A stretch of 64,000 nucleotides of DNA from an uncultured virus (IMG/VR IMGVR_UViG_3300037419_002733) (lineage: Duplodnaviria > Heunggongvirae > Uroviricota > Caudoviricetes): IMG/VR virus record IMGVR_UViG_3300037419_002733; one strand, 5' to 3'. The translations under genes were made by a program, and so were the position numbers. A model generated the notes under the pieces. That model was not told the origin of the DNA. It was given only the letters and a program-made list of their open reading frames with translations, and ran no database searches. How positions within the stretch are numbered: the stretch's first letter is position 1; each line of letters opens with the position of its first letter. This document shows, in pieces, positions 1 through 19,722 of the stretch.

Positions 1-1
1 G

Positions 2-2740
2 AAGCCTGATCTTGATGCCATCGAACCTGAAATTCAGGCGAAATGGCACGGGCTTTATGAGACTCTCCGGGAAATCCGCAAGGACAAGCCGCTCGTAGTC
101 GTCCACGACGGTCCTCCCTACGCCAACGGCGACATCCACTTCGGTCACATGTTCAACAAGGTGTTGAAGGATATCCTTGTCCGTTATCTCACGCTCTCGG
201 GATGCGATGCCCCTTTTGTGCCCGGCTGGGACTGCCACGGATTGCCGATCGAACACCGTGTCATGGAATATTTTGGCACTCAAGAAAATCTACTGACTGT
301 CAGAAAAGCTTGCCGGGTGACGGCTGGGCAGTGTCAGAAATCTCAAGCTAAGCAATTTCAGCGGCTTGGTCTCTTGGCGGATTGGTCCCATCCCTATCTG
401 ACGATGGACGAGAGTTACAAGCGGAAGGTGCTTGAGATACTCTCTCGCTTGGTCGATAAGGACCAGATCAAACGGGAGCTACGCCCCATCGCTTGGTGTC
501 CTCATGATGAGACGGCGTTGGCAGAGGCAGAACTCGAATATAAGGACGTTGAGAGCGATGCGTTCTATGTTGAATTCCCTGCTATCGGGTATCTTTCGGG
601 CGTCTCTTCTCCTTTCTCTTTCGTTGCATGGACCACGACACCATGGACGTTGCCGGGGAATGTGGCGCTTGCAGTTAATCCCGATCTCAAATACGTCTGC
701 GTCAAGATGCTCAAGTGCCAGCGACCAACGCACCGGGACGTATTTGTAGTTGAGGAATCTGCCGTTGCCAACCTGCTGGAACTGATGGATGTTGCCGACC
801 ACGAGATTCTCGGTGAATGCCTTGGGTCTGAGTTGGTCGGGAAGTCCTACTTAGCTCCGATGCCGTTCCGGTTCCTGGTTGATTCCCGAAAAGTGGTCGG
901 TGCCGATTTCGTGACGCAGGGAGTCGGTACTGGCGTGGTCCACATCGCCCCGGCACACGGACTCGACGACTACAAGCTCGCGATCGAACTCGGACTGACG
1001 ATCCTGGACAAGGTCGATGAAGCCGGTAAGTACAACATCCGCTGTTGTCCCGAGATCCACGGACAACATGTCAAGAAGAAGGAGACCCTGAAGGCATTGT
1101 CGTCCATGCTGGGTCGATGTCTCTGGCATCAGGAACGAATCACTCATTCCTATCCTCACTGCTGGCGATGTCACTATCCCACAATCACCCGTGCTACGCC
1201 CCAATGGTTCGTAGATCTGGACAAGAACGCCTTGAGGACAAAAGCCCTCAAGGCGATCTCCGAGACTACGTGGATTCCGGAGAACCTCCAGAACCGCATC
1301 GAGGGTATGGTCGAGTCTCGACCCAACTGGTGCATCAGCCGCCAGCGGCATTGGGGCATCAAGATCCCTGCGTTCCACTGCCACAACTGCAATCAATCCT
1401 TCTTGACCAAAGAGGTGATCCGGGTTGCCATCGAGGAAGGCGACGACTGGTGGCGTGACATCGAGACCAAGAATCACTGCTGGTGTCCGAATTGCGAAAA
1501 GGATGACATCAGCGCCGATGCCGACATCTTGGATGTCTGGTTCGAGTCCGGCTCAAGCTTCGCCTCTGTGGTCCCTTCGGGGGCTGAGAAGGTCATTTAC
1601 ATCGAGGGGAGCGACCAGCATCGAGGCTGGTTCCAGTCGTCCCTGCTCTTGGGAACGGCTCTGAACAACAGGGCACCATTCGATACGGTCATCACGCATG
1701 GCTGGGTCGTGGACGAGTCGGGCAAGAAGTTCAGCAAGTCCAAGGGAGCTCCTCCGGTCATCGAGACCTTGGGCAAATTCGGTGCCGATGTCATTCGGCT
1801 GTTTATCGCATCCCAGGATTACACCGATGACTTGCGGGTCGACGACAAGTTGCTGACGACCGCTCAGGATGTCTATCGGAAGATCCGCAATACCTTCCGC
1901 TTCATCCTCGGGAACATGGATAGGGCGTGGAAGAATACCGATTCCCGTCCGGAGATCACCAGCCAGATCGATTTCCACATGTTGACTCGGCTCAACGACT
2001 TGATTGGTGAGGTCAAGAAAGCGTACGATTCCTATCGTTTCTATCACGTTTATCATCTGGTTTACAATTTTTGCGTGGTAGACCTGAGCAGTGTCTACTT
2101 CGATGTGGTCAAGGACCGTCTGTACGCGGACGACTTGGATTCGCCCTCGGGAAATTCGGTTCGCTGGGTATTGAGGACGATCTACGAGACCCTGGCTCGG
2201 CTCATCTCACCAATCCTTCCGCATACTGCTGAGGAGTTGTGGTCTTACAGGTCCAAAGGATTGGGAGTGGACCACAAGAGTATCTTCCTGGAGACCTTCC
2301 CTCAGCCAATTGCCACCGACGAGCGCCGGGAATTGCCATGGGATACTATCTTTAAGTTGAGGGAGCGGATTTTCGCCGAGATCGAAAAGCTACGATCGGA
2401 GAAGGTGATCCGGACCAATGAAGAAGTCTGGGTCATTTTGGGGACGAAGCAGGAAAATATTTTGACGGCGGTCGAAAATCTGGAGATCATTCGGGACCTG
2501 TGTAAGGTTGCCGATGTTTTCTGGATTCCCGACCCGGTCGTCTCCGATGGGTTCTCGGTGGAGGTCCAGAAAACTAAGTATGCCAAGTGCGAGCGGTGCT
2601 GGCGATATCGGTACGAGGTGGAGAAGAACCCCGAACGCCTCTGTACACGATGCTCCCTCGTCATGGCAGGCAGGAACGGTTCTCGACCAAAGGAAATTAT
2701 TGGTGAGCAAGAACAAAAGCAAGAAGCTAGAAGTGCTTGA
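2..2740 (+). CDS. ileS: Isoleucyl-tRNA synthetase (5'-truncated by window edge)
   Basis: Frame open from base 2. Motifs: HDGPPYANGDIHFGH (HIGH), GWDCHGLPIE, WTTTPWTLP editing domain, GTGVVHIAPAHG, WCISRQRHWG, EGSDQHRGWFQ, KFSKS (KMSKS), C-terminal CERC..CTRC zinc finger. Confidence 0.97.
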   Translation, partial: KPDLDAIEPEIQAKWHGLYETLREIRKDKPLVVVHDGPPYANGDIHFGHMFNKVLKDILVRYLTLSGCDAPFVPGWDCHGLPIEHRVMEYFGTQENLLTVRKACRVTAGQCQKSQAKQFQRLGLLADWSHPYLTMDESYKRKVLEILSRLVDKDQIKRELRPIAWCPHDETALAEAELEYKDVESDAFYVEFPAIGYLSGVSSPFSFVAWTTTPWTLPGNVALAVNPDLKYVCVKMLKCQRPTHRDVFVVEESAVANLLELMDVADHEILGECLGSELVGKSYLAPMPFRFLVDSRKVVGADFVTQGVGTGVVHIAPAHGLDDYKLAIELGLTILDKVDEAGKYNIRCCPEIHGQHVKKKETLKALSSMLGRCLWHQERITHSYPHCWRCHYPTITRATPQWFVDLDKNALRTKALKAISETTWIPENLQNRIEGMVESRPNWCISRQRHWGIKIPAFHCHNCNQSFLTKEVIRVAIEEGDDWWRDIETKNHCWCPNCEKDDISADADILDVWFESGSSFASVVPSGAEKVIYIEGSDQHRGWFQSSLLLGTALNNRAPFDTVITHGWVVDESGKKFSKSKGAPPVIETLGKFGADVIRLFIASQDYTDDLRVDDKLLTTAQDVYRKIRNTFRFILGNMDRAWKNTDSRPEITSQIDFHMLTRLNDLIGEVKKAYDSYRFYHVYHLVYNFCVVDLSSVYFDVVKDRLYADDLDSPSGNSVRWVLRTIYETLARLISPILPHTAEELWSYRSKGLGVDHKSIFLETFPQPIATDERRELPWDTIFKLRERIFAEIEKLRSEKVIRTNEEVWVILGTKQENILTAVENLEIIRDLCKVADVFWIPDPVVSDGFSVEVQKTKYAKCERCWRYRYEVEKNPERLCTRCSLVMAGRNGSRPKEIIGEQEQKQEARSA

Positions 2741-2886
2741 TCTCACGGAATATCATTGTGCTTGCTGCAAGGAGACGTTCTACGCCCAATATGGAGTCGT
2801 AGAACGTTGTCTCCAATGCGGCAGTACAACTGAAGTTGATTCTGTAAGGCATGTAACAGCCAAGGTAGAAAAGGAATGGGGATATC

Positions 2887-3162
2887 ATGGATAAAGGATT
2901 GGTCTTTCGTCGTATTGTTCTAGGACCAGAGCATCAGCCAACTGGTGCGGTTCGGCATATTGTCGGCGGGGAAGAAGCTCCAAGACCATATGAATTGAGA
3001 ATCGAACGGTATAGCTGGGATGATCGCGAGTATTATTTGGTTCACTATGATGAGTCGGGCGATGAGATCACGGATACGCATCATGATTCTCTGGAACAGG
3101 CTCTTGCCCAAGCAGAGCTTGAATTCAATATCAAGCCCGATAGTTGGGAAGTGTTGATATGA
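2887..3162 (+). CDS. Hypothetical protein
   Basis: ATG overlapping upstream small ORF; coding-like 91 aa. Confidence 0.7.
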   Translation: MDKGLVFRRIVLGPEHQPTGAVRHIVGGEEAPRPYELRIERYSWDDREYYLVHYDESGDEITDTHHDSLEQALAQAELEFNIKPDSWEVLI

Positions 3163-3187
3163 TTATAATTTTTAAGGATTGAATTTC

Positions 3188-4255
3188 ATGGACAGTAATA
3201 ATTTCTTAAATCCAAGAGCATGGATAGGATCAGTGGGAATAGGTGGCGTTAGCCCAACAAAAATTTCGACGACCGACTCTGTTTTGCCACTTCTGCCCGG
3301 TCCCGACACATCAGTATGGGACGCTACGTCCACATTCGATGAGCGACTCCATGAGATAGCCCGAATTCGTTGCTATGATCGTTGGCAAGATACAGGCATG
3401 CTTCATGGATTGGACAGGGAAGATGGTCGGACCATGGCGATGGTCTTGGAGAACCAGAGAATTTTCAACGAGGTTGAGACGCAAACAGCAATGGACCCCG
3501 GAATGCGACGTATATCAATCGCAGTTGTACGTCGAGCCATGGCTATGATTTTTGCTGAGAAATGGCTTCCGGTCTATCCATCCACGAGTCCTCTGTCGTT
3601 AATCTACTACTGGCGGCATAGGACCAATGAAGATGGCAAAAGCATTTGGGCCAAAGAATCAGAATCGATCGTGACAAGTTTCACCAAATATGGAGAAACG
3701 TACGAAAACGTAATTGCTGGAGGACCGGATTATGCTGCCGATCTTGCCAAAGACCTGGCTGAATCCGTACTGAGTCGGGCAGCACTCAATATCGCAAGCA
3801 ATGTTGACACGTATGTCGACCGATCTCGCAATGCATCCCCACTCGAAGCCTGTATAATGCTTCGTGAAGCCATTGCCGAGAAGGTCCTTATAAATAAATC
3901 AGAGAAGGGGTTCTTCTGGGCTCTTGTTCCCGAAACTCATCCCGATGACGATTTCGACCGCGATAAATTGGTCCCACAGTTGCAGAATATGGGAATCCAT
4001 GTCCAGCGGCGTGAATTCGAGAAACTCTATAACTTTGAAGATTGGGAGCGATACTACAACCGACCAAGTTTCAAGGTGAATGGGGTCCTTATGGGATTTC
4101 GCGGAGAACACCCCGGTTATAATGGGTATGTTTCGTCGCCCTATATTCCGGTAACAAGGCAAAACGACCGGTTCGTCATGCGATGGGGAGATCGGTTACT
4201 CGGTGAGGGGTCAAAGTTTTACGGTCTCGCTGCGTTGCGAAAGTTGGGAAATTGA
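3188..4255 (+). CDS. Diverged T4 gp23/gp24-like capsid protein homolog
   Basis: WQDTGMLHGL..MAMVLENQ..ISIAVVRRAM..PSTSPLSLIYY and GYVSSPYIP..MRWG..FYG resemble gp23 N- and C-terminal motifs. Confidence 0.7.
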   Translation: MDSNNFLNPRAWIGSVGIGGVSPTKISTTDSVLPLLPGPDTSVWDATSTFDERLHEIARIRCYDRWQDTGMLHGLDREDGRTMAMVLENQRIFNEVETQTAMDPGMRRISIAVVRRAMAMIFAEKWLPVYPSTSPLSLIYYWRHRTNEDGKSIWAKESESIVTSFTKYGETYENVIAGGPDYAADLAKDLAESVLSRAALNIASNVDTYVDRSRNASPLEACIMLREAIAEKVLINKSEKGFFWALVPETHPDDDFDRDKLVPQLQNMGIHVQRREFEKLYNFEDWERYYNRPSFKVNGVLMGFRGEHPGYNGYVSSPYIPVTRQNDRFVMRWGDRLLGEGSKFYGLAALRKLGN

Positions 4256-4262
4256 TCAGTCT

Positions 4263-4302
4263 ATGAGAGGGATTGATTCATCCCTCTCATGTTTTTCTTT
4301 TC
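4263..4302 (+). terminator. Intrinsic terminator-like hairpin
   Basis: ATGAGAGGGAT-6nt-ATCCCTCTCAT (11-bp stem) followed by a T-rich tract. Confidence 0.7.
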
Positions 4303-4313
4303 AGGAGTTGAAA

Positions 4314-4658
4314 ATGTTGTAGATTGAGAATCATGATCCGTACGTTTACGTCTTGGTCCGTAAAGACCAGAGTTATGGACAAATCGTTGTCCAGGCTGGG
4401 CATGCCGCCATCGAGGCTGCACGTCATTTCGTCCCGCCCGACCTCTCCCATCCTTTCCTGATTGCCTGCGGCGTCAAGAACGAAGCCCAACTGCTCCGCG
4501 AGCAGGAACGCCTCGAATCGCTCGGCATCCGCACCAAACTCTTCCGCGAACCCGATATCGGTCACATCGCCACCGCCCTGGCTACAGAGCCAGTCTACGG
4601 CGAGCAACGTCGTCATTTTCGAAAATACCAACTGCTGAGGCTCTCACACGTCGCTTAA
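4314..4658 (+). CDS. Pth2-like peptidyl-tRNA hydrolase with in-frame TAG at codon 3
   Basis: AGGAG 6 nt before ATG TTG TAG, continuing in frame to YVYVLVRKD..QIVVQAGHAA..FREPDIG..TALATEP (phage Pth2-like signature). Confidence 0.85.
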
Positions 4659-4667
4659 TTTTTATCT

Positions 4668-4703
4668 TAATGTGAAACCTAAAATATTTTAGGTTTCACA
4701 TTA
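4668..4703. repeat. 36-bp perfect palindrome
   Basis: TAATGTGAAACCTAAAAT/ATTTTAGGTTTCACATTA between the Pth2-like gene and the groES promoter. Confidence 0.9.
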
Positions 4704-4714
4704 GGATTATTTTA

Positions 4715-4743
4715 TTGACACTATTTTAAAATTATGATATAAC
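4715..4743 (+). promoter_or_regulatory. sigma70-type promoter
   Basis: TTGACA-17nt-TATAAC upstream of groES-like gene. Confidence 0.65.
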
Positions 4744-4797
4744 ACCTTCGCACTAACACCAATTTAAATAAAATAATCTCTAGTAGGAGTTTGGAGA

Positions 4798-5247
4798 ATG
4801 TCGGAAATTATCTTTAATGGTTCGAGTAAGTTGGATTTGAGCATGGTTCCCGCTCCGGTGGTCAAGGCAGCCCCCAAGGTGACGGGCATCCATCCCACCG
4901 GCTCTTTGATTATGGTTGAGTTCTTGACGGCACAGGAGATCCAGGGTGGGTCGATCCTCCTCGGCAACGACACCGAGATCGAAGGACCGCCTCAGGGCTA
5001 CGTCCTGGAAGTCGGACCGAGCCTCCCCGAGTCCAGCGGGATCAAGGTCGGGCAGCGAGTCATCGTCCAGGGTCGTGGCGTTGGTCCTCTCCCTGATTTC
5101 GACGGGAGCAACAAGGAGCGAATGCTGGTCGAGTTCTCGATGATCAAGGCGATCCTCGACGAGGCGAAGCCTTGCTGCCAGGGTAAGAGGGCTGAGACCG
5201 TCGAAGCCGCATCGCATTGTTGCTCGTCTAAGGTTGTGGTGGGCTAA
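4798..5247 (+). CDS. groES: GroES/Cpn10-like co-chaperonin
   Basis: IHPTGSLIMVE..GGSILL..QGYVLEVGP..IKVGQRVI..IKAIL. Confidence 0.8.
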   Translation: MSEIIFNGSSKLDLSMVPAPVVKAAPKVTGIHPTGSLIMVEFLTAQEIQGGSILLGNDTEIEGPPQGYVLEVGPSLPESSGIKVGQRVIVQGRGVGPLPDFDGSNKERMLVEFSMIKAILDEAKPCCQGKRAETVEAASHCCSSKVVVG

Positions 5248-5251
5248 TTAA

Positions 5252-5587
5252 ATGAATGATGAAAATCAAGTATGGGTTGTTCTCTGGAATGACACATTGA
5301 TGTTCGCCGAGGGTCTTTCGGTAGACTCAGCAATTAATGGGGTTTTCCGAACCCTCGACAGCGCCAAAGCTAAGGTAGTCGAATTGCTCAAGGATGACGA
5401 CGATGATGACTCGGATGACGACACCTTCGACGGCGATGATTCCGACTATGACTTCGATGGTGATGACTCGGATGACGACGATGAAAACGAAGATTATACT
5501 TTCGAAACAGAAGATGATGGAACCGTCATGGTGATCTCGCCTCTGGGCGAACTCATTTACTGCATCGTTCCACAAACAATTGACTAA
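5252..5587 (+). CDS. Highly acidic hypothetical protein
   Basis: 111 aa with long poly-Asp tract. Confidence 0.7.
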   Translation: MNDENQVWVVLWNDTLMFAEGLSVDSAINGVFRTLDSAKAKVVELLKDDDDDDSDDDTFDGDDSDYDFDGDDSDDDDENEDYTFETEDDGTVMVISPLGELIYCIVPQTID

Positions 5588-5630
5588 TTGTCTTTTGGTC
5601 TGCTAAGTATTACACTAGTATCTTTCAAAC

Positions 5631-5677
5631 ACAAAATATCCCTAGGTAGACCACGAGTCTACCTAGGGATATTTTGT
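5631..5677. terminator. Bidirectional terminator between convergent genes
   Basis: 21-bp perfect stem, 5-nt loop (ACAAAATATCCCTAGGTAGAC/GTCTACCTAGGGATATTTTGT). Confidence 0.8.
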
Positions 5678-5923
5678 TCACTTAGTGGCGAGCCAGTTCA
5701 ACAGGTCGTTGACATTCAGTTCGCCGAACTCCTTCCGGATCACCTCGATCGCCACCTCGGCGAGGTTGCCGCTCTGGTCCAGCAGGATCGGGAAGGCAAT
5801 CTTCATCCCCTGGCGAGCGAATATGCCGCCAGAACTCTCGATAATCTGGTCTTTGTGAGCGAGTAATGCCTCGCGAATCGCCCCCTCGACCTTGACCGAC
5901 AATGCATCGCTGTTGAAGCTCAT
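5678..5923 (-). CDS. Hypothetical protein
   Basis: GGAGG before ATG (MSFNSDALSVK...). Confidence 0.65.
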   Translation of the reverse strand: MSFNSDALSVKVEGAIREALLAHKDQIIESSGGIFARQGMKIAFPILLDQSGNLAEVAIEVIRKEFGELNVNDLLNWLATK

Positions 5924-5987
5924 CAGAAATCCTCCAGTACGTGACCACCACCCTTTTGAAAGCAAAGTTTCCCGCCATAAATATGGT

Positions 5988-6662
5988 ATGCCACACTACA
6001 AGATAATCGCGACTTCCTCTTGGGAATTCGAAGCCATCGGATCGCTCGAATCGATTACGGAGCAAGCGCGTAAATTGGTAAACAATGTAATCGCCCCAAG
6101 TCCCCAAGGCGAGGATTACAGGAACTTTGGCATTCAAATGGAGTTGGTGCCCCTCAAGGACAAGTCATCTTCGGTCAATCAACTAAAAACATTTACACCC
6201 GAACAGGTTTTCTCATGGATCACCGACAGCCAAGAAAAGACCTTGATTAGGATTGCGGAAAATGTTTATGAGGTTAAAATGAACTCGGATCGCTACCGCC
6301 TCTTTCAGCAGAATCCGACCTGCGTATCTTGTGGTTTGACAGGCAACAAATTTATCCTCGAAAATCCTCCCGGCGAATTCACCGCGCATTTCAACTTCTA
6401 CGCCGAAGAAGATGGTCGAAATGTCCTCATGACCAAGGATCATATCAAGGCAAAGTCTTATGGTGGTGCCGATTCGCTCGATAATTACCAAACGATGTGT
6501 CAACATTGCAATGCCATTAAGGCAAGTTTTCCCTTGAGCAATGATTCTGTGAGAAAACTACGGGAGATACTGAAGAACAAGGAATGTCTCGGAACCAAAG
6601 AGTTGAGGAAGAAGATCAATCAGACCCGATTGTTGCTTCTGGATAGCCTTACAGGTCAATAA
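5988..6662 (+). CDS. HNH endonuclease
   Basis: CVSC..TKDHIKAKSYGGADSLDNYQTMCQHCN. Confidence 0.9.
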   Translation: MPHYKIIATSSWEFEAIGSLESITEQARKLVNNVIAPSPQGEDYRNFGIQMELVPLKDKSSSVNQLKTFTPEQVFSWITDSQEKTLIRIAENVYEVKMNSDRYRLFQQNPTCVSCGLTGNKFILENPPGEFTAHFNFYAEEDGRNVLMTKDHIKAKSYGGADSLDNYQTMCQHCNAIKASFPLSNDSVRKLREILKNKECLGTKELRKKINQTRLLLLDSLTGQ

Positions 6663-6686
6663 TATTTTTTCAAATGGATTGGAACG

Positions 6687-7097
6687 ATGAGATATTTCTC
6701 AAAAGGGACTTTGAGAAAGAGTCCGGTATCGCAGTCGAAGACGCCAACCCCGCAGGCACGATGGTGGTTGGTCGTCGATCTCCAAGACGATCTCGGGAAA
6801 TACTATAGACACATGTACAATTGGCATTTCCGTGCCCATGCCCAACTGATTCGTCCCGCCTGGTCTGAACATATCACAGTTGTCCGCAATGAGGAACCTC
6901 CCAATAAACTCATGTGGGACCTAATCACCTCTGAAATTATCACCTTTGAATACAGCACAGAAATGGAAACCGACGGCAAGCACGTCTGGCTGCCGGTTTG
7001 GTGCGATGCTTTGCTTGGTCTGAGAGGAAGTCTCGGACTGAAACGAGACCCGCTATTTCCATTGCATCTTACGATTGGTGTGGTTCCTGGGGATTAA
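6687..7097 (+). CDS. 2H phosphoesterase family protein (Acb1/gp57B-like fold)
   Basis: Two HxT motifs, HITVV and HLTIG, about 68 aa apart. Confidence 0.75.
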   Translation: MRYFSKGTLRKSPVSQSKTPTPQARWWLVVDLQDDLGKYYRHMYNWHFRAHAQLIRPAWSEHITVVRNEEPPNKLMWDLITSEIITFEYSTEMETDGKHVWLPVWCDALLGLRGSLGLKRDPLFPLHLTIGVVPGD

Positions 7098-7159
7098 TGC
7101 CTCTATATAACTCATAGCTGTGTATATACCTCCTAGAAGGAGTATTTTAGGAGGCACAT

Positions 7160-7618
7160 ATGGGTTTTTGGACATCTGTTCGTCCTTACTTAATTACATT
7201 AATGATTTGTGGGGCAATTCTTGGTCATGGGTGGTTTGCCACTCATCCCAATCCATTCGGTCCCACTCCGCCACAGCCACATCCTGATCCGGTAATCCCG
7301 GTCGCAACGATTGTTTCCGACGAAGAGGCGCATGCTTGGGCAAAGGCATTGCTCAAGTCCTACTCCGACAGCGGTCTCACCTCGGAAACCGAATTGAAAG
7401 CCAAGGTCGGTTTCGGCGACGTTCAGAAGCACCTGGAAGAGAACTTCAAGTCTCGACGCCAGGAAGCGTTCACCGGTCTATTCAATGGTAAGATTACGGC
7501 AAAAATTCCGGCTGGCACGACCAATCCGACCCAAGAGCAGGTGGATTGGATGGCTGGCTTCATGGGTGAACTGAGCAGGAAGGTAGGTGATATTAGCAAT
7601 AAAATGGGGGCTAAGTAA
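7160..7618 (+). CDS. Membrane-anchored/secreted hypothetical protein
   Basis: AGGAGG RBS; N-terminal hydrophobic helix plus Pro-rich linker. Confidence 0.75.
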   Translation: MGFWTSVRPYLITLMICGAILGHGWFATHPNPFGPTPPQPHPDPVIPVATIVSDEEAHAWAKALLKSYSDSGLTSETELKAKVGFGDVQKHLEENFKSRRQEAFTGLFNGKITAKIPAGTTNPTQEQVDWMAGFMGELSRKVGDISNKMGAK

Positions 7619-8544
7619 TGGACATCAATTCTCTTTGTGGATATGTGCCGAATCCTCTCGGCAACGCGCAAATCCTCGCAAGCATGCCTTACCCTCTTTT
7701 CGGTCAGGCTGCTCCTAACTTAATGAACGTCCAGCAGAAGGATGTTTATCTCTACAAGGCATGGAAGGATGCCTTGGGCAGCTACCCTCATTATGTCGCT
7801 CAGCAGATTGGAGACTGTACTTCAATGGGTAGCGGTCACGGAGTTGACCTTCTCCAGGCTGTACAGATGGTGATCGGCAAGCAGAATGAGACCTGGAAAG
7901 AGACCTCTACCGAGGCTCTCTACGGCGTGGGTCGAGAGATCGCCGGGATGTTGGGCAGCAACGGCGACGGTTGCTACGGTGGCGCTCTCGCCAAAGCCGT
8001 CACGACGACCGGCGTAATCCCCCGCGAGGTGGTCGGTGCCTATAGCGGGCAGCGTGCCAAGACCTGGGGCTACCAGGGGACTCCGAGCGACGTCAAGCAG
8101 AAGATGAGGGAACACCTCGTCAAGACTGCCTCTTTGGTCTCGACCTGGACCGAATTGGTTGCCGCTCTCTCTAACGGCTATCCCGTAGTCGTCTGCAGCA
8201 ACCAGGGCTTCCAGCTTCGCCGCAACAATGTCGGGATTGCCGAGGCTCAAGGGTCTTGGAGTCACTGCATGCTGATCGTCGGTATTATGTACACGGGAAG
8301 CCGTGATGAGTGTGCGGTCATCGCCAATAGCTGGGGTGACGACGCCTGCCAGGGTCCTACCCCGAACGACATGCCGCCGTTCTGCTTCGGAGCCAGGAGA
8401 AATGTCGTGGAGAACATGCTTGCGATGCGGGACTCTTGGGCTTATTCGACCTTCGACGGATACCCCGGCAATAACTTGCCGTCGAACTGGACCGTGGGCG
8501 GTTGGGCAGGAATGACCGAAGTTGAAGTTGAAGAGTTCAACTGA
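7618..8544 (+). CDS. Papain-like (C1) cysteine peptidase
   Basis: QQIGDCTSMG (Gln/Cys), WSHCM (His), IANSWG (Asn). Confidence 0.85.
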   Translation: MDINSLCGYVPNPLGNAQILASMPYPLFGQAAPNLMNVQQKDVYLYKAWKDALGSYPHYVAQQIGDCTSMGSGHGVDLLQAVQMVIGKQNETWKETSTEALYGVGREIAGMLGSNGDGCYGGALAKAVTTTGVIPREVVGAYSGQRAKTWGYQGTPSDVKQKMREHLVKTASLVSTWTELVAALSNGYPVVVCSNQGFQLRRNNVGIAEAQGSWSHCMLIVGIMYTGSRDECAVIANSWGDDACQGPTPNDMPPFCFGARRNVVENMLAMRDSWAYSTFDGYPGNNLPSNWTVGGWAGMTEVEVEEFN

Positions 8545-12424: not shown

Positions 12425-12982
12425 ATGAGCCTTCCGGTCTTAAACGACTCTCCGGTTCCCGACCACAAAAGGATCGAATTCGGTCACGCGAGGACCAAGT
12501 GCGGCTGTAAAGACTGCTTGATGAATTGCCGGTATATGCCGGGCTACCTCATCCCGTCCGACCTCGCGAGGATGATCCCAGCAGGTGCCGACCCCTTGGA
12601 ATGGGCGAGCAAGAACCTGCTGGCGTCTCCCGGTGCCACTGTGGCGGTCTTGAACCAGCAGACCGGGAAAGCGGAGGGGCAACGGCGGATTCCCACGTTG
12701 GTCCTTGCCGAGAAGCCGGACCATTCGTGCATCCATCTTGGCGATGACGGAAAGTGCGGGATTCACGAGACTTCGCCATTCGCCTGCGCATTCTTCGACT
12801 GTCGATCCACCGGCGAACATCTCAGTCTTCAAGGGCTTCGGGCAGTCGACCAAGCATGGGCTGATCCCCAGAGCCTCTACCGATCGATCTGGACGTATCT
12901 TTCGGGGCAAGGACTGGTCAGCGATTCCCCGAATGTCAAGCGGCGACGAATGAAGGAAATGGCGTATTTTGAGAGCCTATAG
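12425..12982 (+). CDS. YkgJ-family cysteine-cluster protein
   Basis: CGCKDC..CR..CIHL..GKCGIHETSPFACAFF. Confidence 0.75.
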   Translation: MSLPVLNDSPVPDHKRIEFGHARTKCGCKDCLMNCRYMPGYLIPSDLARMIPAGADPLEWASKNLLASPGATVAVLNQQTGKAEGQRRIPTLVLAEKPDHSCIHLGDDGKCGIHETSPFACAFFDCRSTGEHLSLQGLRAVDQAWADPQSLYRSIWTYLSGQGLVSDSPNVKRRRMKEMAYFESL

Positions 12983-18201: not shown

Positions 18202-18495
18202 ATGCCGCGTCTCACCGTAATCAACGCCGAGAAGATTTATAAGAACAACCAACCTCGATATCAGGCTGACCCCGGAGCCTTCCGGAGTCCCGAGGATTTC
18301 TGCCAGACATGCTTTGGTCGCATCGACGTCGATGCCCTCGCCAAACGCGAAAAGATCAGCGTCGATTTCGCTGAAGAACAGGTCAACGGGCTGGCAGACG
18401 AGCAGGGCTTGCTCAACGACGATCACCCGGATTACGGAGATCTCGGCTACGAGTGCGTCCAGTGCGGGAAGACATTGACCGACGACGATAACTAG
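18202..18495 (+). CDS. Small zinc-binding hypothetical protein
   Basis: CQTC..CVQC. Confidence 0.7.
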   Translation: MPRLTVINAEKIYKNNQPRYQADPGAFRSPEDFCQTCFGRIDVDALAKREKISVDFAEEQVNGLADEQGLLNDDHPDYGDLGYECVQCGKTLTDDDN

Positions 18496-18600
18496 TCGGT
18501 TCATTCGGTTAAAACCGGATACGCCCTGTGCAGCAACGGCGACGACGAAGTCGCTTCATTTGAATCATTCAAATTCCCTGCCATCGGAGGGTGTTGGTTC

Positions 18601-19722
18601 ATGTTTCACACAGCGGTTTCCCCGATCATCCATTCCGACCTTTGCAAAGAAGAGGAGGAAGTCCTTTTCGATGTTCTTCGAAAAGGAAACGTGGTCCTCA
18701 AGAAATACAGCGATTCGGTCAAGCTTCTCAACCGAATCGCCAAGTCCTTCCGCTACGCTCCCGAAGAATTCCGGGAACGTTTGTTCTTGCCGGAAAATCA
18801 TCCTCGACGCATTTCTTACCGAGGCGTGATGACGACCGAGGAATACGAGCAGGTCAAGATCCTCGGCAACGCCAAGCCGGACAAGTGGTTCGCCAGAGGT
18901 TCGATTCAAGAGTTGCGAAGGAATGTCAACACGCTGGGGCTGTCGGAGTCGGACCTCGCCAAGGTTAAAGCGGTCGCATCCGTTCAGAATCGGATCATCG
19001 AGGGCTACGTCCGGATGGTCTGCGATCTCGCACAAACGCTGGCGAGACGGTCGCACGATCAAGTCCTAGTGGATGCTGAGGTTTTGATCCAGGTGGGCTT
19101 GATGGGAGTTGTCGCGGCTGTCTGGGGGTATCGCCGCGACAACGTCTTATTCAGCACCTACGTCAGCAACAGCATCTTCCGTCACATGGTGCGGGAACTG
19201 GCTCAGACCAATCCTCAGAACAAGTTGCTCTCCCAGAACTACAAGTTGGTGTCGGCATATTATGCCGCCTCGATTGAGAACATCGAAGACAGGAGGTTCG
19301 AATCGATCGTGTCTCGGGTCAAGATCACGCTCAAGAATGGCGGGTTTCGGCGTCCTACCGACAAGGAAATCAAGCAGCTTAGAGCGGCGTTTGGTCCTGA
19401 AAGCAAGTCGACCATCCGCGATACCGAGATGCAGATCGACGAGGGTGACGGCAAGTTCATCGGCGGCATCAACTCCTGTCCCGCTCCTGTCAAGGTCGAT
19501 GTGACCTCCTTCAATGAGCTTCTCGACCGCTCCGGATTGGACGCGAAAGAACGAGAGTTGATCGAGATGGCGCAGGAAGGCAGCCATGGGTTCCAAACCC
19601 GGTGGGCTGAGAAGCATAATTGCTCGCGCACATGGGCGGGCAAGATGCTCCGGAAGGCGTGGTCCAAGATTGAGAAGGCTCGGGTCAATCAACATCGCAT
19701 TCTCCAGAAAGCGGCTCTTTGA
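18601..19722 (+). CDS. Sigma70-family RNA polymerase sigma factor
   Basis: Region 2: YVRMVCDLA..EVLIQVGLMGVVAAVWGY..FSTYVSNSI. Region 4: LDAKERELIE..AEKHNCSRTWAGKMLRKAWSKI. Confidence 0.85.
   Translation: MFHTAVSPIIHSDLCKEEEEVLFDVLRKGNVVLKKYSDSVKLLNRIAKSFRYAPEEFRERLFLPENHPRRISYRGVMTTEEYEQVKILGNAKPDKWFARGSIQELRRNVNTLGLSESDLAKVKAVASVQNRIIEGYVRMVCDLAQTLARRSHDQVLVDAEVLIQVGLMGVVAAVWGYRRDNVLFSTYVSNSIFRHMVRELAQTNPQNKLLSQNYKLVSAYYAASIENIEDRRFESIVSRVKITLKNGGFRRPTDKEIKQLRAAFGPESKSTIRDTEMQIDEGDGKFIGGINSCPAPVKVDVTSFNELLDRSGLDAKERELIEMAQEGSHGFQTRWAEKHNCSRTWAGKMLRKAWSKIEKARVNQHRILQKAAL

Follow-up and report, generated by a model that had tools for sequence, protein, structure and literature searches.

Stop-recoded phages that carry their own suppressor tRNAs have been described among crAss-like, Lak and other phages, with TAG read as Gln ('code 15') or TGA read as Trp ('code 4') (PMC9523058, PMC10879173, PMC11210395, PMC13037316). 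Moreover, orphan suppressor tRNAs with CUA, UCA or UUA anticodons have been reported in jumbo phages that use the standard code, namely XacN1 (PMC5852040), Atu_ph07 (PMC6102473) and phiKp24 (PMC8386662), and the available text of these reports names no target for them. For XacN1, the same text states that 18 annotated amber stops were read through without a target for the phage's two CUA tRNAs coming to light (PMC5852040).

Here we describe an in-frame TAG at the third codon of a Pth2-fold gene, located in a 64,000-nt stretch of DNA (the window) within a giant soil phage record (G000; 253,022 bp, GC 0.50, estimated to be 43% complete). Going by the available text of the papers on recoded phages, the likeness is that a phage tRNA reads a stop within phage genes and that an in-frame stop delays or conditions translation; in our case, likewise, the phage encodes a tRNA whose anticodon matches the in-frame stop, and the stop lies inside a conserved coding frame. 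However, recoding as described there involves many genes and many recoded stops, and code 11 gene calling fails, whereas the present gate, as we call the early stop, is found in a standard-code genome and concerns one small gene family and one stop, always within the first few codons and with an identity that changes with the tRNA.

Two further systems are close in form. In prfB, which encodes RF2, an early in-frame UGA is escaped by a +1 frameshift, and the product is the very factor being sensed. The phage gene is similar in that an early in-frame stop ties output to how well the stop is recognised, but its body continues in the zero frame from the ATG and needs no frameshift; a tRNA is the proposed reader, and the encoded protein has a Pth2 fold and is not a release factor. 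Minigenes of the lambda bar type, on the other hand, are stand-alone toxic elements, expected to release or drop very short peptidyl-tRNA. The phage sequence AGGAG-N6-ATG TTG TAG has the same form, that is, an RBS, AUG, one sense codon and a stop, but here the minigene forms codons 1-3 of a conserved protein gene; among relatives, the unit preceding the stop measures 1-8 codons, most often 2. No published description of such a gate was found in the literature searched, which covered few subscription journals; the gate is apparently undescribed, phage stop recoding with own suppressor tRNAs being the nearest known system.

Organization of the gated gene

The features of the locus, in window coordinates, are the following:

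1..2740, plus strand: class I aminoacyl-tRNA synthetase gene, IleRS-like; it starts upstream of the window and lies between tRNA(CUA) and the gated gene
4262..4301, plus strand: terminator-like hairpin and T-run; 12-pair stem (4262-4291), 6-nt loop, then TTTTTCTTTT
4303..4307, plus strand: Shine-Dalgarno sequence AGGAG, 6 nt before ATG 4314
4314..4319, plus strand: start codon ATG, then TTG as codon 2; these two sense codons stand ahead of the gate
4320..4322, plus strand: the gate, an in-frame TAG at codon 3; the next base is A
4323..4655, plus strand: Pth2-fold body, 111 aa; beta-1 corresponds to residues 7-13 (4341-4361)
4656..4658, plus strand: true stop codon (TAA) of the gated gene
4664..4717, plus strand: terminator-like palindrome and T-rich tail; 20-pair stem, hairpin 4664-4707

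The arrangement is as the initial annotation had described it from the letters alone: AGGAG leads to ATG TTG TAG A in frame with the Pth2-like reading frame, and a terminator-like hairpin directly precedes the RBS. This hairpin terminates the upstream gene (3179-4255) and is separated from the RBS by 1 nt; between this terminator and the RBS no promoter-like site was found. The body opens with ATT GAG AAT CAT GAT CCG TAC GTT TAC GTC TTG, in the zero frame of ATG 4314. The only canonical in-frame start past the TAG is TTG 4353, which had been said to lack an RBS and to cut the first Pth2 strand. Both statements hold, as there is no Shine-Dalgarno-like sequence ahead of it, and it corresponds to residue 11 of the reading from 4323, inside beta-1 of an AF2 model of the body (pLDDT 93.4, pTM 0.86). 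The body (4323-4658) is without a usable start of its own, and a real N-terminus upstream of TTG 4353 is supported.

Regarding the surroundings, an Rfam search over 1-8000 returned only two microRNA-family matches, far below threshold. Past the downstream hairpin, at 4717-4746, an AT-rich, near-consensus promoter-like sequence (TTGACA ... TATGAT/TATAAC) stands ahead of a GroES-like gene (4798-5247), and the 111-aa protein encoded at 5252-5587 carries an extended tract of Asp and further acidic residues and has no family match.

Conservation of the early stop among homologs

Homologous DNA was collected from IMG/VR, JGI and ENA metagenomes, GenBank phages and genome bins. IMG/VR, metagenomes and GenBank phages together provided 65 distinct loci, and genome bins were counted apart. 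The IMG/VR and metagenome scans used a peptide pattern, derived from a 12-sequence alignment, that demanded an intact YVYV strand; a GenBank tblastn search without the YVYV requirement gave the same picture. We scored as gated any locus in which an in-frame stop followed an in-frame start after 1-8 codons and preceded the YVYV strand by 1-20 codons; 57 of the 65 loci, with homolog identities of 33-61%, had this structure. Such loci start mostly with ATG, usually with a good RBS, and most are without a canonical start between the stop and the YVYV strand. The stop is TAG in 53 (including ME3 and three fused forms), TGA in three and TAA in one. The remaining eight rows (L042 and L043, which are one gene, L051, L052, L057, L058, L059 and RaK2) have ordinary ATG or GTG starts. 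Among genome-bin loci, five of six are gated, one of them being the same as L048. As these loci are related, the counts are not independent. Nevertheless, the test proposed with the initial annotation, namely whether homologs keep an in-frame stop 1-5 codons past the RBS-linked ATG, came out positive, with conservation at 1-8 codons, which supports the early TAG as a probable conserved functional feature.

The base following the stop is a purine in all 51 distinct contexts (A in 26, G in 25), compared with 30 of the 47 ordinary TAG stops of G000; two bin loci added later (L130 and L131) have C after the TAG. Classical studies of amber suppressors in E. coli showed that a purine 3' of the stop shifts the balance from termination to suppression. 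An alternative source of the bias would be a preference for Ile or Val codons at this position. A second in-frame TAG occurs inside the gene in L025 and L029.

An ATG immediately follows the gate in L026, L045 and L050, and lies four codons further on in XacN1 and Xoo-sp13, so that in these five loci the gate could be bypassed. This bears on the possibility that the two-codon unit is a leader, after which ribosomes terminate and restart at the next codon (here ATT, a near-cognate start) with no suppressor involved. The TAG ATG arrangement of the first three loci would suit such reinitiation, as would the codon that follows the stop, which is ATT in 14, ATC in 2, GTG in 2 and ATG in 3 of the 51 contexts. 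However, many of the next codons are non-initiators (GTT, GTA, GGC, GAA, AAC, AAT, GAC, ACT), leader and body share one frame in every case, and reinitiation leaves unexplained why stop identity tracks the anticodon of a suppressor tRNA in 31 of 31 loci, with at least three joint switches (see below). We therefore consider this explanation unlikely.

Authenticity of the TAG

The TAG was confirmed in further assemblies: TAG 4320 occurs without differences in contigs of two other soil/rhizosphere metagenome runs, neither flagged as a possible source (X4 record 2, covering 4158-4697, and X6 record 9, covering 4140-4361), and an IMG/VR contig (L001) holds an identical copy of the gated stretch. 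Moreover, when the 253-kb record was scanned for an RBS and ATG followed within eight codons by TAG and then by a long ORF with a strong coding score, the gated gene (score 14.4) was the single case. As the sole strong-scoring TAG case in the record, and with its recurrence in 57 of 65 homologous loci, the gate is beyond chance.

A broken gene or an assembly error would be in line with the GenBank annotation of GAP32, Arash, Serratia BF, fHe-Yen9-04 and RsoM2USA, in which the gene is omitted or truncated. Against it stand the identity of the TAG in the contigs of two other runs, the retention of the stop across about 60 loci, and a body that is open and has a high-confidence fold. A broken gene is excluded by this conservation, as far as sequence can show, and we regard this explanation as having next to no chance of being right.

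A divergent family with a Pth2 fold

The initial annotation had called the gene Pth2-like, and this stands as to fold. The match of the protein to PF01981 (Pth2) reaches 28.6 bits, above the curated cut-off of 23 (E 1.8e-6), and aligns residues 9-93 with profile positions 4-102; a family profile matched the PDB entries 24bt_A (E 3.4e-7) and 2zv3 (E 3.8e-5). In a Foldseek search with the AF2 model, the first 14 matches were all Pth2 structures (TM 0.52-0.76), the best being 2zv3, 1wn2, 3erj, 1q7s and 1xty (TM 0.65-0.76). By contrast with the fold, orthology to archaeal Pth2 is not supported, since the scores with the NCBIfam equivalog models lie far below their cut-offs (TIGR00283, 18.4 bits against a cut-off of 82; NF003314, 16.6 against 126).

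Catalysis in Pth2 reportedly depends on the Lys of a GK motif and the Asp of a DAG motif, according to work on the S. solfataricus and P. horikoshii enzymes. In the HMM alignment, the GK-motif Lys aligns with Gln20, a position occupied by Q, Y, T or other residues, and never by K, in 31 members of the phage family, and the DAG-motif Asp aligns with Glu76, which is invariant in the same members. The phage family therefore shares with archaeal and eukaryotic Pth2/PTRH2 the fold, a Q..HA motif and, where those enzymes have the DAG Asp, an acidic residue, but differs in the absence of the GK Lys. As this reportedly catalytic Lys is missing, we treat the protein as a candidate peptidyl-tRNA hydrolase: the Pth2 fold is established, and hydrolase activity is putative.

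This Pth2-like phage family is large, since a profile search of 1.84 billion cluster representatives retrieved 1,531 proteins at E <=1e-10. In many database gene calls of the family the start falls within beta-1, as in 'MYVLVRKD', which begins at an internal GTG, while others read 'M-x-Q-V/I...', as code-15 calling would give. Judged from the protein sequences alone, both kinds of call are compatible with gene callers having run into the same early stop.

The phage tRNA(CUA) and its relation to the gate codon

Of the 34 tRNAs that ARAGORN detects in G000, one has a CUA anticodon. It is located at 118149-118222 of contig C1, on the complement strand, which corresponds to positions -579 to -506 relative to the window, on the window's plus strand. 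The tRNA is therefore encoded about 500 nt outside the window and about 4.8 kb upstream of ATG 4314, on the gene's own strand. The genome-wide search for such a tRNA, suggested from the window, was thus successful, and the earlier assumption that no suppressor is present has to be abandoned. The tRNA directly precedes the IleRS-like class I synthetase gene, whose HFGH motif lies upstream of the window.

The G000 tRNA(CUA) folds as a normal cloverleaf with G1-U72 and A73. What is atypical is the anticodon arm: C31 and A39 are mismatched, and the loop reads UUCUAGU, CUCUAAA being the loop of most relatives. For this reason the tRNA may be a weak suppressor. Its best similarity is 69% to a tRNA-Arg, which is too little to infer its amino acid.

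Overall, gate codon and suppressor anticodon matched in all 31 loci in which ARAGORN detected a suppressor-type tRNA together with a gate, with no mismatch: 27 pair TAG with CUA, three pair TGA with UCA (L007, L012 and L032) and one pairs TAA with UUA (L049). Each of these tRNAs is encoded on the same strand as the gated gene, in many cases no more than 100-200 nt away. Further matches were found in ME3, in four bin contigs and in L014, where two CUA tRNAs (L138 739-811 and 878-980) directly follow the gated gene; both were detected by Infernal only, having been missed by ARAGORN. One of these two has C33 in its anticodon loop, and the other carries a hairpin insert of roughly 30 nt in the variable region. 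In addition, all seven TAG-gated whole or large genomes (G000, ME3, Arash, GAP32, Serratia BF, RsoM2USA and LR756511) encode a tRNA(CUA), which in GAP32, Serratia BF, RsoM2USA, LR756511, the contig of L002 and G000 is present though not adjacent to the gene. In Salmonella phage Arash, the CUA-anticodon tRNA (L069 3801-3875) is annotated as tRNA-Phe.

A maximum-likelihood tree was built from 58 proteins; duplicates, four short sequences and two that lacked the motif had been removed beforehand. The TGA-gated genes fall in three places on this protein tree, indicating three separate changes. L007 (TGA) is sister to L019 (TAG) with support of 100/98, and L012 (TGA) to L011 (TAG) with 96/96; the tRNAs of L007 (UCA) and L019 (CUA) look homologous. 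Such co-variation of gate codon and anticodon resembles the evidence normally used to establish base pairs in RNA, and from it we argue that the tRNA probably reads the gate codon in nature. The link between gate and suppressor is not obligatory, as L043 and L057 are ungated and have a suppressor tRNA nearby (UUA and CUA, respectively). In the contig of L009, which is 44% complete, the tRNA regions (24 kb bearing tRNAs) yielded no CUA tRNA.

The initial annotation had proposed that the protein is made only when RF1 fails or a suppressor tRNA is present. The suppressor branch of this proposal fits, as gate codon and anticodon co-vary. The other branch amounts to a sensor that needs no phage tRNA, in which near-cognate host tRNAs would read UAG when RF1 is scarce or blocked, in a prfB-like feedback. 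The early stop, the short peptide and the purine after UAG, which suits a context prone to read-through, would all be in line with such a sensor. Nevertheless, a cognate tRNA would be unnecessary if near-cognate host tRNAs did the reading, and one is encoded in seven of seven whole or large genomes, its anticodon switching with the gate. Moreover, no direct RF1 feedback loop is evident, since the protein is not a release factor. Taken together, this makes a tRNA-free RF1 sensor quite improbable. The other suggestions of the initial annotation, a drop-off loop of the lambda bar type and a role in countering translation-targeting defence, are speculative.

Gated genes in cultured jumbo phages and neighbouring genes

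The beginnings of the gated genes in cultured phages, all read in frame with the Pth2-like body, are the following:

GAP32: ATG GCA CAA TAG
Serratia BF: ATG ACG CAC TAG
fHe-Yen9-04: ATG TCT CAC TAG
ME3: ATG ACT TAG
Arash: ATG CTG TAG
Ralstonia phage RsoM2USA: ATG TTG TAG ATT, identical to the window
XacN1, fused gene, upstream of the annotated start: ATG AAG TAG
Xoo-sp13, fused gene, upstream of the annotated start: ATG AAG AAG TAG
RAS14, fused gene, upstream of the annotated start: ATG AAG TAG
Loci of the fused genes: L063 1958-2812 (XacN1 243735-244595); L066; L067 1953-2812

In the records of the first six phages the gene is absent or annotated as a truncated piece; standard annotation truncates or omits it, as a stop occurs at one of its codons 3 to 9. 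In Arash, only the last 50 codons of the gated gene are annotated, as 'peptidyl-tRNA hydrolase'.

In XacN1, Xoo-sp13 and RAS14, the Pth2-like domain forms the C-terminal half of a 280-residue protein, whose N-terminal domain of roughly 170 aa carries an HD-like motif (HD..GKP..HFPNHA). In the 43% of the genome that the G000 record is estimated to represent, a search for the N-terminal domain of XacN1 gave no homolog. XacN1, whose CUA tRNAs were left without a target, thus itself carries a member of the gated family: its gate is at 243735, in frame, just upstream of the annotated ORF364, and in our scan of this genome the fused gene was the sole TAG-gated coding ORF. Being a two-codon ORF upstream of an annotated start, this candidate target would have escaped an examination of annotated amber stops.

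Directly downstream of the gated gene, 19 loci encode a conserved 130-285-aa protein of no known family (e.g., L004 3406-3903, L005 3309-3791, L007 3323-3790 and L049 3318-3755, with 15 more loci). In L009, L011, L012 and Arash, the downstream gene encodes an HD-like phrog_14850 protein, the same domain as in the fusions. GAP32 contains a second candidate gate (L076 1451-1861; 311451-311861), in which ATG CTA TAG leads into an open frame of 134 codons; this frame scores highly as coding sequence, matches no Pfam family and contains an ATG 26 codons from its beginning.

Proposed mode of action

Based on the conservation of the early stop and on its co-variation with the anticodon, we infer that the Pth2-fold gene is probably gated at translation by the phage's own suppressor tRNA, in competition with RF1. 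Ribosomes would load at the AGGAG-linked AUG, make fMet-Leu and meet UAG after one elongation step. There, host RF1 would release fMet-Leu, or the peptidyl-tRNA would drop off; alternatively, tRNA(CUA) would insert an amino acid at the UAG, yielding the full protein of about 113 residues. The output of the hydrolase-like protein would in this way follow the ratio of suppressor activity to RF1.

As for the function of the product, the Pth2 fold, the adjoining tRNA arrays, the fusion to an HD-like domain and the downstream phrog_14850 gene suggest tRNA 3'-end chemistry. The protein may act on tRNA-linked esters; it might remove peptidyl- or aminoacyl-tRNA that arises as a by-product of suppression, or it might return the suppressor tRNA to its uncharged state. 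A wider reading, which we put forward tentatively and which is more doubtful than the gating itself, is a circuit with two parts. In it, the main role of orphan suppressor tRNAs in standard-code jumbo phages would be to unlock a Pth2-fold hydrolase, in some cases fused to or followed by an HD-like domain, and this hydrolase would act on suppression products or on the charged suppressor, so that during infection the pair would work as a homeostat that itself gauges stop-codon read-through; at least four co-switches (TAG to TGA three times and TAG to TAA once) would belong to this picture.

The gated family offers a conserved and testable target for the orphan suppressor tRNAs of standard-code jumbo phages, as these are presented in the available text on XacN1 (PMC5852040) and phiKp24 (PMC8386662). 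If confirmed, the gate would represent a compact, natural 'suppressor-dependent switch', with a bearing on phage gene timing and on how a phage lives with read-through in a host that keeps RF1, and could also provide a natural part for genetic-code engineering. It would also show that recoding confined to single, sparse codons is missed by screens that rely on coding density.

Code usage in the rest of the genome

That the genome as a whole is not recoded, as had been concluded from the window, agrees with the larger record. Greedy ORF coverage of G000 is 0.836 under code 11, and becomes 0.855 with TAG as sense, 0.863 with TAA as sense and 0.888 with TGA as sense, so the gain with TAG is below that with either of the other stops. 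TAG closes 47 of the 313 ORFs of the record, being its rarest stop, and in the window it also closes the ORFs ending at 12980, 20442 and 39257. A codon-usage screen for in-frame stops with coding sequence on both sides gave 11 TAG against 12 TAA and 10 TGA, that is, no enrichment, and no Pfam or PHROG domain spans the TAG in the five best other candidate read-through pairs of the window. Code 11 calling of G000 is not fragmented, and one gated gene was found.

These observations bear on the possibility of ordinary sparse recoding, in which TAG would be sense in many genes and the gated gene would be just one of them. The second in-frame TAG in L025 and L029 and the rarity of TAG in G000 would agree with it, and other TAG-bearing genes could lie off the record, given its 43% completeness. 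Nonetheless, a gain in coverage with TAG as sense that is no larger than with TAA or TGA, the lack of a domain across the five best other TAGs, and a stop that is N-terminal in nearly all homologs rather than scattered all speak against it, and we hold sparse recoding to be rather improbable. Returning to gating by the phage's own suppressor, the gated gene is the one clear cis-target found for tRNA(CUA), the rest of the 253-kb record following the standard code.

Two further observations concern decoding in this genome. At 18202-19722 of the window, two ORFs, one of 97 codons and one of 408 codons whose C-terminus is sigma-factor-like, are parted only by an in-frame TAG at 18493, and the next in-frame start with an RBS comes 35 codons later; the pair may be one read-through gene or two, and is ambiguous in this respect. 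Finally, ARAGORN predicted tRNAs with four-base anticodons, namely gcaa and aaag in G000 (C1 194433-194509 and 195476-195558) and tttt in L002 (375-448).
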